Positions 30,001 through 33,000 of a DNA stretch of 64,000 nucleotides are shown one piece after another (the first letter of the stretch is position 1; every line of letters begins with the position of its first letter). The position numbers are program-made. The stretch is from positions 32,001 to 96,000 of the forward strand of contig CAXXIA010000002.1 of the NCBI GenBank assembly GCA_963666985.2. The letters are read 5' to 3'. This DNA is from Spirochaetia bacterium (GTDB lineage: Bacteria; Spirochaetota; Spirochaetia; DSM-2461).

Positions 30001-33000
30001 ATGGTGGGGGCCAAAGAGGCCGAAAACAGGGCGACGGCGTTATACAGTCTCTTCCGGGCCGTTGAAAACTCTTCCAGAGGATCGACAATCCGGCTTTCCA
30101 GCGGAACGGTCAGCGATTCCGTGTTCGGAGAAAAAGGAACGGTTCGCGATATGTAATCCTTCAGTTCCAAGGTTACGGGCATCACGCGGTCCGGACGCTC
30201 CACCGAAAGCGGTGTTCTGCCGAGCCAGAGAGTTCCGAGGCGCACATCGGCACCGGGCGGAATACTGCGTACCAGAACGGCATCCGAACCCGTCTTTTCA
30301 AGGGCTAAATCCAGCGTTTTTCTTTCAGATTCATCAACCCTTTCATTGATAAGAAGCGGTTCGAAACCATGGGCGGTTACTTCAAGAACATAATCTCCCG
30401 GCTTTAAAACCGAAGAAGACCAATACCCCACCCCAGCCGTCCGGCCGTTCACGGCGATCAGGGCCGTGGGAGGCTCGGTCTGCACCGTCAGAGAGCCCCA
30501 GGAACGGCCGAGTATAAGAGTCCGAAGCGCGGCGCCCGCTTCCCGGGAAACATCCTCAAGCTCGATATCCGACGCGGCGCCTTCCCATATCGATACCGAG
30601 CCTTCGGCGGTTAGGGCCGTAATGCCGATGCCGTAATAATCTCCCACCCGAAGCATTTTGCCGCAAACCAGAACATCAAGATCGTGATATTTCCGAAAAG
30701 ACTCATGCGCCATCTTCCCGGTATCCCATATTCTTCCTCCGCCGACGGGATCCGGGTAAACGGCAAGAAGACTTAACGGTACGAAAACGGACTGCGGAGG
30801 AGCGTCTTTTAATCGCCGTGCTTTACGCGAAGCCTCTTCAATGTCGAGTTCAATATCTTTTAAATCGGCCGCCTGCGCGTTCGGATCAAAGAGGAACTCA
30901 TCGCGCTTGGCATGCAAAGATGCGAGCTTCTTCCATGCTTTCGTCTCTTCATCCTCAATAACGGCGCGAGCCAGCGCGATTCGCTCTTCGGGCAAAAGAA
31001 GATGCTCATCCACTTCCTCCAATTCACCGCGGATCAGCCTGGAAACCAGAGAAGACGCGGAAACCAAAGCTCCGTCGGAGGCGTCATTTACGGTCAAAGC
31101 CGCAACACCGATCGACCATTCGGTCTTCGAAGCAGCAAGATTCTCATCATCCCCGCCGTCGGCGGCGTATGCGCCGGCGGAGAAGAAAAACAGGACGGCG
31201 GCCGAAACGGCCGGAGTCGAAGTGAAAAGAAACCTCTTATGCCTCTTCATGTTCTCCGGCCTTGCGTATCGCCGAAAGAAGACGCTCCTTTCTGAACGGC
31301 TTTACCACGAAATCCGCGGCGCCCCATCGAATGGCCTCAAGAATGCGCTCCTGATCTCCGAGTGAAGAACACATCACGACTCGCGCCGACGGATCTTCCT
31401 TTCGAATCCGCCTGAGGGCTTCGAGTCCGTCCATTCTCGGCATGGCGATATCCATAAGCGTTAAATCCGGCCTCCAGGCTCTCCGCAGAAGCATGGCCTG
31501 CCTGCCGTCGGCGGCTTCGGCCACAACCTCGTGCCCGCCCGTCTCAAGGATGTCCCGGATGAGATTCCTCATGAATTCGAGGTCGTCGACGACCAGAATT
31601 TTCATTTTTCCGATCCGTCCGCCCGCCAGCGTAAATAAGAATCGATAAAAGGATCCAAATCTCCGTCCATCACGTTCTGGATGTTCCCGGTTTCGTGCCG
31701 TGTTCTTAAGTCCTTAACCATTGTATAAGGATGAAAAACGTAGGAGCGAATCTGGCTGCCCCAGCCGATGTCTTTCTTTTCGGCCGCGGTCGACGCCCGT
31801 TCCTCTTCCTGCTTTTGGCGATAGTACTCGTACAGCCGCGACTTCAACACCTTCATGGCCGTCGCACGGTTCTTGATTTGACTCCGTTCGTTCTGACATT
31901 GAACGACGATGCCGGATTCCAAATGGGTCATCCGGACGGCGCTGGAGGTTTTGTTCACATGCTGACCTCCGGCACCGGAAGCCCGGTAGGTATCCACCCT
32001 GATATCCTCAGGTTTCACATCGACTTCAATATCGTCGTCGAAAACAGGCGAAACATAGACCGAAGCGAAAGAGGTATGGCGGCGGCCGGCCGAATCAAAG
32101 GGGCTGATCCGCACCAGCCGATGGATGCCGCCCTCGCCTTTAAGCAGACCATGGGCGTAATCTCCGTCGATTTGAAGGTCCACCGACTTGATGCCTCCCT
32201 CGGCTTCCTGCATGTCAAGAAGGGTCATTTTAAATCCCCGGCGTTCCACCCAGCGGCCGTACATCCGGTAGAGCATCGCCGCCCAATCACAGGACTCGGT
32301 GCCGCCGGCACCGGAATGAATGGTTAAAAAGGCGCAGGCCGCATCGGTTTCTTCGCCGAGCAGTTCCAGAATACGAAGCTTCCCGTAGGATTCCTTCAGC
32401 GATTCGGCGGCTTCCTCGATTTCCGCGAACATTCCTTCATCGCCGGCTTCCAGGGCCAAAGCGAAAAGCGTCTGGAGATCTTCCAATTCGGCCGCGAGTT
32501 CGTCCCAGGGCTCATACCTGGCCTTAATTCTTTTCAGTTCGGCCATGGCCTTCTCGGCCTTTTCCCGATCGTCCCAAAATCCGGGTTCACCGGAAGAGGC
32601 TTCGAGATTCCGCGCCTGTTCTTTCAGACCGGAGGAGTCAAAGACGCCTCCATGTGTCGAGAATATCCTTTTCGAGGGATTTCACCATGGGATTCAAATC
32701 GTTAAGCATTAGGTCCTCTCTTCCTGTTCGCGGATTGTAACACGGCGCCATCGTTTTTCGTTCAAAGACGTAATGGCCATCGTGTCTTCCACGGGATACT
32801 GATAAAAACGGATCGAATCGTAAAAATCTGTGGCCCGGTCCAGATCGACCTTAAGACGGCTGAGTCTCTTTTCATCCACAGATGTCGATTCAAACACGCC
32901 TTTCTGCACCTGCCGGAAGCCGTATCGGAACAACAATCCCGTCACCGCCTTAAGGCTGTCTTCATTTCCCAAATCCAGGACTACGGCGACGAACATTCCC

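Follow-up and report, generated by a model that had tools for sequence, protein, structure and literature searches.

A stand-alone Cas2-superfamily gene directly upstream of the release factor 2 gene in Spirochaetia

The gene string and the junction with prfB

The window, a 64,000-nucleotide stretch of a contig from a Spirochaetia bacterium, encodes a small Cas2-like protein immediately upstream of prfB, the gene for release factor 2 (RF2), in a string of genes on the minus strand (Table 1). In Escherichia coli, prfB contains a programmed +1 frameshift at CUU UGA C, which follows a Shine-Dalgarno-like element. The prfB gene of the window has the same arrangement in textbook form, with a short ORF1, GGAGG 3 nt upstream of CTT TGA C, and RF2 encoded in the +1 frame, where ORF2 scores 493.9 bits against NCBIfam TIGR00020 (cut-off 370). 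The cassette itself is unremarkable; what is new is the gene in front of it. A TAATG overlap followed by CTT TGA C had been described in the first-pass annotation, and the coordinates of both the TAA and the ATG could be read, with CTT as codon 23 of ORF1.

Table 1. Features of the cas2-like–prfB gene string, in window coordinates
Feature	Coordinates	Strand	Description
PEGA-domain protein	29787..31250	(-)	Final conserved gene of the string; Pfam PEGA 1.1e-13
Single-domain CheY-like response regulator	31237..31605	(-)	ATG overlaps prfB stop (ATGA); Pfam Response_reg 4.9e-31
prfB ORF2 (+1 frame)	31602..32639	(-)	From GAC 32639-32637 to stop 31604-31602; contains SPF and GGQ
+1 frameshift cassette	32637..32651	(-)	GGAGG 32651-32647, CGT, CTT 32643-32641, TGA 32640-32638, C; read directly
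prfB ORF1	32641..32709	(-)	23 codons, the last being CTT
TAATG junction	32707..32711	(-)	cas2-like TAA 32711-32709 and prfB ATG 32709-32707 share one base; gap -1; read directly
cas2-like gene	32709..32996	(-)	ORF of 95 codons plus TAA; stand-alone Cas2-superfamily protein
Hpt-domain gene	33001..33369	(-)	Directly upstream; stop 4 nt before cas2-like ATG; Pfam Hpt 7e-10
595-aa protein	33366..35153	(-)	Upstream of Hpt; no Pfam or NCBIfam match

Of 70 related loci, 66 likewise have an ORF1 of 23 codons, and the frameshift site reads CTTTGAC in 68 of the 70 and CTTTGAA in the other 2. An earlier count of 11 of 11 loci with prfB as the next gene downstream extends to 152 of 152, prfB or its frameshift leader lying directly 3' of the cas2-like gene in every in-class locus read; the offset of about 175 nt given with the earlier count matches no distance measured here. 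This sample comprises the 70 loci, a further 80 (79 with an RF2 match and one that ends at the contig end), and L174 and L175. The stop and start codons overlap in only 15 of the 70 loci, all from the window's own family. Translational coupling, as claimed previously, is not supported as a general feature, as outside that family the two genes are separated by gaps (over the 70 loci the median is 12 nt and the maximum 199 nt, with 0-40 nt in 48 of them). At these other junctions a purine-rich, Shine-Dalgarno-like stretch often precedes the prfB start, as judged by eye and unscored. In the window's family, the overlap suggests that ribosomes ending the cas2-like frame may re-initiate on the prfB leader.

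The short gaps or overlaps along the string indicate a single transcript. No terminator-like site was found between the cas2-like gene and prfB on the minus strand of the window, and a promoter scan was uninformative (2 promoter-like sites versus 3.3 expected by chance). The cas2-like protein would then be made from the RF2 transcript, upstream of the frameshift and presumably independent of RF2 frameshift feedback.

A Cas2-superfamily branch outside CRISPR loci

Several lines of evidence bear out the initial assignment of a Cas2 fold. The protein passes the Pfam CRISPR_Cas2 model (36.6 bits, 5.3e-9; cut-off 23.8), falls under the cut-off of the NCBIfam cas2 model TIGR01573 (20.9 bits; cut-off 24.5), and has 11 PADLOC matches, all of them to Cas2 models (best 38.7 bits). 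The AF2 model (pLDDT 94.0, pTM 0.82) consists of elements E2-8, H12-24, E28-31, E34-37, H42-55, E61-69 and two further strands. Together with its structural matches, it has the ferredoxin-like beta1-alpha1-beta2-beta3-alpha2-beta4 fold of about 90 aa expected of Cas2. The top Foldseek matches in the PDB are Cas2 proteins (2i0x, 4qr0, 6k2e, 4es2 and 1zpw; E 1.7e-3 and weaker, TM 0.6-0.7, about 30% identity), and VIA-align ranks 1-14 are all Cas2 chains (Z 10.6-6.8). PDB matches at the sequence level had been reported as missing; the family profile does give marginal ones, all to Cas2 (3exc 1.3e-3, 6k2e 2.2e-3, 1zpw 4.8e-3). BLASTP aligns the protein to the I-C Cas2 of the same genome at 32% identity over 71 aa (E 4e-4).

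Canonical Cas2 proteins (PF09827; I-A/B/C, II and III type; 1zpw, 2i0x, 4qr0, 4es2, 8d3p chain E) are about 30% identical to the cas2-like protein, and their signature positions are kept in it: the acidic residue ending strand 1 and the YG, FES and D-x-x-R-x-Y motifs align. In Cas2 and VapD this acidic residue binds metal, according to PMC10491678. Its counterpart here is position 8, at the C-terminal end of strand 1. Among 139 distinct family sequences seven positions are invariant and position 8 is acidic in every one; since 126 of them carry Asp and 13 Glu there, the Asp previously called invariant is better described as a conserved acidic residue. Unlike canonical Cas2, the cas2-like protein has an extra hairpin (three strands after helix 2 in the model), residues invariant in its own family beyond the Cas2 signature (K49, D57, Q66, P68 and W83), and a basic [KR]W[KR][KR] strand. 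Its scores against Cas2 models are 20.9-38.7 bits, versus 100-150 bits for the true Cas2 of the genome.

With a profile built from the family, the in-family matches listed score at least 81 bits and six lower matches score at most 28 bits; the canonical Cas2 of the same genome is unmatched at E<=0.001. Just 42 representative clusters were retrieved at E<=1e-3 among 1.84 billion proteins. No fused form of the domain was found at E<=0.001 among proteins of 168-2000 aa, which is weak evidence. Two candidates were set aside. One is a 509-aa repeat protein (P0106) whose match looks like chance, and the other (P0100) joins the N-terminal part of NusA_N to the C-terminal half of the cas2-like domain in a single metagenomic prediction that may be an assembly chimera.

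The genome also encodes a canonical CRISPR locus, about 2.07 Mb from the cas2-like gene, which includes Cas1 (C2:2138950-2139822), Cas2 (C2:2138570-2138806; 100.9 bits), Csd1/Cas8c and an array of 16 repeats. We typed it as I-C because Csd1/Cas8c and the 16-repeat array are present. This agrees with the earlier placement of a type I-C locus with its own Cas2. Canonical cas2 genes lie beside cas1 and a CRISPR array, whereas the cas2-like gene has no Cas1, array or cas neighbours and is a single-copy, most likely vertically inherited gene in a fixed position before prfB. A tblastn search for Cas1 and canonical Cas2, with a single I-C Cas1 query, gave no match in 164 cas2-like loci (772 kb), and a direct-repeat search found no CRISPR array within 20 kb on either side of the gene. 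Tandem Repeats Finder, a tool poorly suited to CRISPR arrays, returned nothing in the window.

The cas2-like gene is carried by 178 of 401 Spirochaetia genomes (44%) in 77 of 155 genera. It was not found in the other 223 sampled genomes, which include several whole families, so the statement that it occurs throughout Spirochaetia was too broad. Every carrier has exactly one copy (178 of 178), and the larger survey gives the same proportion of carriers as the 55 of 121 genomes counted before. Synonymous divergence is saturated (dS) and dN is 0.06-0.35, indicating purifying selection; omega is 0.026-0.040 for the two cas2-like pairs where it was computable. The dN of the cas2-like gene exceeds that of the RF2 core by a factor of 1.1-2.5, and unlike canonical Cas2 the protein evolves almost as slowly as RF2. 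Pairwise identities of the two proteins correlate only moderately (Pearson 0.63, Spearman 0.36).

Public databases already name the protein "CRISPR-associated protein Cas2", and a Cas1 match is present in 64 of the 178 carriers, as might be expected of a spare Cas2 serving Cas1 in trans or of the decaying remnant of a lost CRISPR locus. However, the remaining 114 carriers have no Cas1 match, in the same proportion as the 35 of 55 counted earlier, and the presence of Cas1 is independent of the cas2-like gene (64/114/89/134 genomes, odds ratio 0.85, p 0.47, related genomes not being independent of one another). The genome of the window has a canonical Cas2 beside its Cas1, there is neither an array nor a cas gene in the vicinity of the cas2-like gene, which across the class is both intact and subject to purifying selection. 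A spare or decaying Cas2 is thus highly improbable. The gene is instead a member of a distinct branch of the Cas2 superfamily, about 90 aa in length, so far found mainly in Spirochaetota and outside CRISPR adaptation. The 152 in-class loci, the odds ratio and the purifying selection uphold its description as a conserved, single-copy, CRISPR-independent Cas2 paralogue, and the branch has very probably been exapted.

VapD toxins (6zi0, 9kan) have the superfamily fold in common with the cas2-like protein, and Cas2 and VapD are described as sharing fold and ancestry in PMC8987985. VapD structures are also among the structural matches, at Z 6.4-6.5, far weaker than the Z of 10.6 reached by Cas2. 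A VapD-type toxin would have a small antitoxin gene next to it, in a module that is mobile and patchily spread. The cas2-like gene has no small partner, its neighbours being prfB and either the Hpt gene or a divergent gene for a 415-aa protein, and it is conserved like a housekeeping gene, with one copy, a fixed chromosomal position and an omega well below 1. We therefore find it scarcely credible that the gene encodes a toxin with a cognate antitoxin, or is a selfish or defence element of some other kind.

A further comparison is with BPSL1038 of Burkholderia pseudomallei, which its report presents as a non-CRISPR, Cas2/VapD-like nuclease subfamily, undetectable as Cas2 by sequence, that bears a D(X20)SST motif and an added helix at the C terminus (PMC10491678). 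Like the spirochaete protein, BPSL1038 as described there is a conserved stand-alone Cas2-like fold outside CRISPR loci with an Asp ending strand 1, and it is a precedent for other cellular roles of Cas2-like proteins. On the same account, the spirochaete family differs in passing the Pfam Cas2 model, in ending in beta strands and in being tied to prfB. Alignment positions 29-32 of the family lack SST, the model ends in strands, and no BPSL1038 chain is among the PDB sequence and structural matches listed.

Neighbouring genes and loci without the cas2-like gene

In Spirochaetia that carry it, the cas2-like gene is usually the first in a string of cas2-like, prfB, response regulator and PEGA genes. 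The response regulator follows prfB in 51 of 70 loci, the PEGA gene is present in 29 of the 40 loci having 5.8-kb flanks, and a divergently transcribed gene upstream encodes a secreted protein of about 415 aa that is homologous in 31 of 33. The prfB context of the cas2-like gene was not described in any paper found in the open-access PMC and bioRxiv literature.

In the window, the order of Hpt, cas2-like, prfB and receiver genes would fit a cas2-like protein that cooperates with its phosphorelay neighbours (Hpt and the CheY-like receiver) in a signalling pathway, as adaptor or effector. Four complete or near-complete congeners point the same way, lacking all three of the Hpt, cas2-like and response regulator genes but having those for the 595-aa protein, RF2 and the PEGA protein. 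However, Hpt adjoins the cas2-like gene in only 12 of 70 loci, all from family f1, which is that of the window. The receiver match is absent from 19 of 70 and 56 of 80 cas2-like loci, to which short flanks contribute, and a response regulator also follows prfB where there is no cas2-like gene (L176, L178, L180). We consider a signalling role very unlikely.

Where the cas2-like gene is absent, prfB and its frameshift site are intact. The CTTTGA[C/A/G] site is retained in 20 prfB loci from genomes without the gene, and the idea that the gene and the prfB frameshift are lost together was rejected. Among congeners without a cas2-like copy (L074-L077) the 595-aa gene still adjoins prfB, and in some other loci (L178, L180, L181) the divergent upstream gene directly abuts it. 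Because prfB and its site are intact in such genomes, neither RF2 expression nor the frameshift needs the cas2-like gene. Elsewhere in the phylum, outside the class, none of the 12 homologues retrieved (31-40% identity) adjoins prfB; their neighbours are variable, and the downstream gene is often convergent.

The first-pass annotation had linked the cas2-like gene to RF2. Adjacency within the class stands, without exception, but it is a matter of gene order only, and it is offset by the unlinked out-of-class homologues and by the intact prfB of genomes without the gene. Other genes of the conserved string have no obvious connection with translation (response regulator, PEGA, divergent secreted protein), which weakens what can be concluded from adjacency. 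Any functional tie to RF2 is suggested by operon membership only.

Alternatively, the protein may be an exapted, stand-alone Cas2 that has no part in translation or RF2 function and acts on DNA or RNA as a nuclease or binding protein, perhaps in repair, recombination or regulation. Its place beside prfB would then be inherited synteny in a conserved spirochaete gene island. The functionally mixed composition of the island, the out-of-class homologues and the intact prfB of genomes without the gene agree with this, and canonical Cas2 proteins of like sequence type are described as dsDNA nucleases in the titles of PDB entries 4es1-4es3. In contrast, an adjacency that is exceptionless in class, with very short gaps and in at least 77 genera, indicates that selection has held the pair together wherever the gene survives. 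We regard this alternative as a serious possibility, though less likely than not.

Possible functions

The best overall explanation, to which we would give nearly an even chance, is that of a CRISPR-independent Cas2 branch with an RNA-directed housekeeping task tied to translation. Most likely, capture of a cas2 gene early in the history of the phylum was followed by vertical inheritance of a single chromosomal copy. In CRISPR adaptation a Cas2 homodimer, nuclease or not, bridges two Cas1 dimers. The protein would have retained the Cas2-type dimer, with a putative acidic pole of D/E8, D13, D57 and D60 that binds metal, and may bind or cut nucleic acid, most probably RNA. It is predicted, with reasonable confidence, to be a nucleic-acid binder or nuclease. 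Its task might lie, for example, in termination or in the surveillance of mRNA on stalled ribosomes. A role in translation or RNA quality control is possible, at somewhat less than an even chance, and direct action with RF2 is unlikely.

The most specific form of this proposal is that a Cas2 taken from a CRISPR module early in spirochaete evolution is now a translation factor, a small dimeric RNA binder or cutter made from the RF2 messenger. It would act together with RF2 or with the ribosome at termination, for instance cutting the mRNA or setting it free if termination stalls at UGA or UAA. We think this quite unlikely; if true, it would give the first case of a Cas protein recruited to the core machinery of translation termination. 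ArfA/BrfA-type rescue factors, which recruit RF2, are small and reach into the empty mRNA channel with a C-terminal tail that is basic and disordered. They serve here as a functional analogy only, and the cas2-like protein has no such tail, its basic [KR]W[KR][KR] stretch forming part of a strand modelled with confidence (E82-88; residues 81-90 average pLDDT 92).

A CRISPR-type protein seems, then, to have taken on a housekeeping job in spirochaetes. Cas2 is the universal CRISPR adaptation protein, and according to PMC8987985 it is still not known what its nuclease activity is for. In the spirochaete branch Cas1 and the array are gone, but the protein is conserved nearly as tightly as an essential translation factor and is encoded within the RF2 operon, so that the branch offers a natural experiment on what the Cas2 fold can do alone. 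For annotation, a genome labelled as having "Cas2" only because of this gene lacks a CRISPR adaptation module. The family is small, its model is of high confidence, and named carriers exist, among them Oceanispirochaeta crateris, Treponema lecithinolyticum ATCC 700332 and Treponema sp. OMZ 840.

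A Cas2-fold family outside CRISPR

The 95-aa cas2-like protein encoded directly 5' of prfB, the release factor 2 (RF2) gene, matches Pfam CRISPR_Cas2 (E-value 5.3e-9; 36.6 bits, exceeding the cut-off of 23.8) and scores 20.9 bits with NCBIfam cas2, under that model's 24.5 cut-off. Its 11 PADLOC matches are without exception to Cas2 models, with a top score of 38.7 bits; the genome's canonical Cas2 reaches 149.9 bits on Cas2c. Foldseek searches of the PDB with an AF2 model (70-row alignment, pLDDT 94.0, pTM 0.82) returned Cas2 as top matches (E-values 1.7e-3 and weaker, TM 0.6–0.7, ~30% identity). 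In a structural search against all representatives, Cas2 chains occupied ranks 1–14 (Z 10.6–6.8), followed by generic ferredoxin-like folds and VapD (Z 6.4–6.5). Sequence matches of the family profile in the PDB were marginal and to Cas2 only. BLASTP against the genome's own Cas2 (E-value 4e-4, 32% identity across 71 aa) aligned the Asp at position 8 and the YG, VFE and DS-R-Y motifs. Based on these profile, PADLOC, AF2/Foldseek, structural-search and BLASTP matches, the assignment to the Cas2 fold and superfamily is sound. Public databases name the protein 'CRISPR-associated protein Cas2', and the same automatic name is attached to its ESM Atlas neighbours.

The cas2-like gene lies outside the CRISPR machinery. 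The genome's complete type I-C locus, about 2.07 Mb from the window at C2:2.138–2.143 Mb (G000:C2:2137070-2143041; L001, L003), encodes Csd1/Cas8c, a Cas4-like ORF (identified by eye), Cas1 and Cas2, and its array consists of a 32-nt repeat that recurs 16 times at a spacing of 65–68 nt. A direct-repeat search found no array within 20 kb on either side of the cas2-like gene, and no tblastn match to Cas1 or canonical Cas2 was detected across 164 homologous loci (772 kb in total). Cas1 was matched in 153 of 401 sampled Spirochaetia genomes: 64 have both genes, 114 the cas2-like gene only, 89 Cas1 only and 134 neither (odds ratio 0.85, p 0.47, a descriptive test only, because related genomes are not independent).

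The cas2-like proteins form a distinct, slowly evolving family, found as a single match in each of 178 of the 401 genomes (119 of 305 high-quality ones) and in 77 of 155 genera. Among the matches listed for profile A1, built from an alignment of these proteins, family members score at least 81 bits and six others at most 28 bits; the genome's canonical Cas2 does not match it. Just 42 of 1.84 billion cluster representatives, scanned exhaustively, reached E ≤ 1e-3, and a search of 185,579 species genomes found relatives encoded in 373 stretches. Titles of the best 80 of these are mostly Spirochaet-, Treponem- (including Treponema lecithinolyticum, Treponema sp. OMZ 840 and Treponematales), Rectinemataceae or Sediminispirochaeta; a few are plain 'bacterium' records, and one metagenome-assembled genome (MAG) is titled Borreliella garinii.

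Seven residues do not vary across 139 distinct sequences: E36, K49, D57, R63, Q66, P68 and W83. At position 8, 126 sequences have D and 13 have E; at position 13, 130 have D and seven have E. Positions 82, 84 and 85 are nearly always K or R. Comparisons with close relatives gave dN of 0.06–0.35 with saturated dS, omega of 0.026 and 0.040 in the two pairs where it was computable, and a dN 1.1–2.5 times that of the RF2 core. The protein has a Cas2 fold, is independent of CRISPR and is strongly constrained, and the proposal in the first-pass annotation of an exapted Cas2 is well supported. In a 148-aa metagenomic protein (P0100), the initial ~60 residues of a NusA N-terminal domain are followed by a cas2-like C-terminal half (34% identity to residues 25–89); a chimeric assembly or a rearrangement of the locus may account for it.

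Gene order around prfB

The window's prfB leader is a classical RF2 frameshift cassette (see table). The minus-strand genes are tightly packed in the order 595-aa protein, Hpt, cas2-like, prfB, CheY-like receiver and PEGA protein, with 4 nt between Hpt and the cas2-like ATG, and with the receiver start overlapping the prfB stop (ATGA). No histidine kinase occurs within this string.

Features of the cas2-like/prfB region in window coordinates, with one example from another locus (L038)
Feature	Position	Strand	Basis or remark
cas2-like gene	32709-32996	-	ORF, 95 aa
TAATG junction	TAA 32711-32709, prfB ATG 32709-32707; final A common to both	-	sequence reading
prfB ORF1	23 codons, up to CTT 32643-32641	-	sequence reading
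Frameshift site	CTT 32643-32641, TGA 32640-32638, then C	-	sequence reading
GGAGG	32651-32647, 3 nt 5' of CTT	-	sequence reading
prfB +1 frame	to stop 31604-31602	-	SPF and GGQ present; NCBIfam prfB 493.9 bits
595-aa protein	33366-35153	-	no Pfam or NCBIfam match
Lone Hpt protein	33001-33369	-	flanks cas2-like/prfB pair
Lone CheY-like receiver	31237-31605	-	flanks cas2-like/prfB pair
Divergent ~415-aa gene (example)	L038:1233-2483	-	upstream of cas2-like gene

We read 70 loci of the class, 30 returned by survey and 40 fetched with a spread over families, and prfB is the next gene in all 70. It also follows in 80 of 80 loci among the best 80 of the 373 stretches (79 with an RF2 match, one ending at a contig edge), and likewise in L174 and L175. 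The observation is real and reproducible. These 152 loci are partly redundant because some genomes were reached through both surveys. Among the 70, the frameshift site is CTTTGAC in 68 and CTTTGAA in two, and ORF1 has 23 codons in 66. In a few leaders A or G replaces the C after the in-frame TGA, giving CTTTGAA (L052, L054, L110, L187) or CTTTGAG (L179), and the prfB start codon is GTG or TTG in several spirochaete loci.

Translational coupling, as first annotated, is only partly supported: the window has a stop/start overlap, and all 15 overlapping loci belong to its family f1, but in the other 55 of 70 loci the genes do not overlap and lie 0–40 nt (48 loci) or more than 40 nt (seven loci) apart (overall median 12 nt, range -11 to 199). 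The cas2-like gene heads the prfB string; outside f1 this follows from the divergent orientation of its usual upstream neighbour, a conserved gene for a ~415-aa protein that occurs in this place in most of the Spirochaetia families sampled (L032-L073). These proteins have a hydrophobic, signal-like N-terminus (by eye, three sequences), are mutually homologous in 31 of 33 cases and have no Pfam match. Within f1, the 595-aa protein is kept upstream of Hpt or prfB (27–62% identity, tblastn). Downstream of prfB, 51 of 70 loci carry a receiver gene; of the 40 loci whose flanks were long, 29 also encode a PEGA protein there.

Possible function and known relatives

The family is a stand-alone branch of the Cas2 superfamily, most closely related to canonical Cas2 of the I-A/B/C, II and III sequence type. 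VapD toxins are other known relatives; a passage of one review derives Cas2 from VapD-like toxins and calls the role of Cas2 nuclease activity unknown (PMC8987985). The closest precedent in concept for a CRISPR-independent member is BPSL1038, presented in an excerpt of its report as a non-CRISPR Cas2/VapD-like nuclease subfamily (PMC10491678). Our search of open-access PMC and bioRxiv literature found no description of a prfB-linked or spirochaete housekeeping Cas2.

Placing residues by secondary-structure topology, D/E8 (end of strand 1) would lie near D57 and D60 (loop before strand 4) and D13 (helix 1 cap), a predicted acidic pole resembling the Cas2/VapD metal site. A second conserved patch (M1-F2, E36, Q66, P68) probably occupies the opposite pole. 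We would therefore expect the protein to form a dimer that binds or cuts nucleic acid in a metal-dependent way. If co-transcribed with prfB, it would be made from the RF2 messenger, with probable re-initiation at TAATG in f1; its synthesis would presumably be independent of the RF2 frameshift feedback, since the gene lies upstream of the frameshift. We tentatively favor an RNA-directed task connected with translation; direct cooperation with RF2 seems unlikely.

Loci lacking the gene or the prfB adjacency

The suggested link to RF2 is only partly supported, as adjacency within the class. Surveying the phylum turned up 14 strong members of the family in classes other than Spirochaetia, and none of the 12 fetched (31–40% identity) lies close to prfB; they have varied neighbours, and often a convergent gene comes next. 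The CTTTGA[C/A/G] site is also kept in 20 prfB loci of class genomes with no cas2-like match, and the divergent 415-aa gene directly adjoins prfB in three loci (L178, L180, L181). Four congeners of the window's organism, with smaller genomes (2.5–3.5 Mb, one or two contigs), retain CTT TGA C in the order 595-aa homologue, prfB, PEGA, and jointly lack Hpt, the cas2-like gene and the CheY-like receiver (L074-L077; G222, G182, G088, G209). Because prfB and its frameshift site are intact in such loci, RF2 and its autoregulatory frameshift are independent of the cas2-like gene. The main rival to a translation-connected task, namely that the synteny has no functional meaning, sits well with these loci but less easily with the adjacency inside the class, and we regard it as possible but somewhat doubtful.

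No match to the gene turned up in families f13 (0/38), f27 (0/37) and f25 (0/12) in the class sample and f69 (0/75) and f74 (0/38) in the phylum sample. The MAG titled Borreliella garinii (L140, record DYOB01000005.1) has a cas2-like/prfB/PEGA string; its label may be wrong if f27, with genomes of about 1.0–1.8 Mb, is, as we guess from that size, the Borrelia family.
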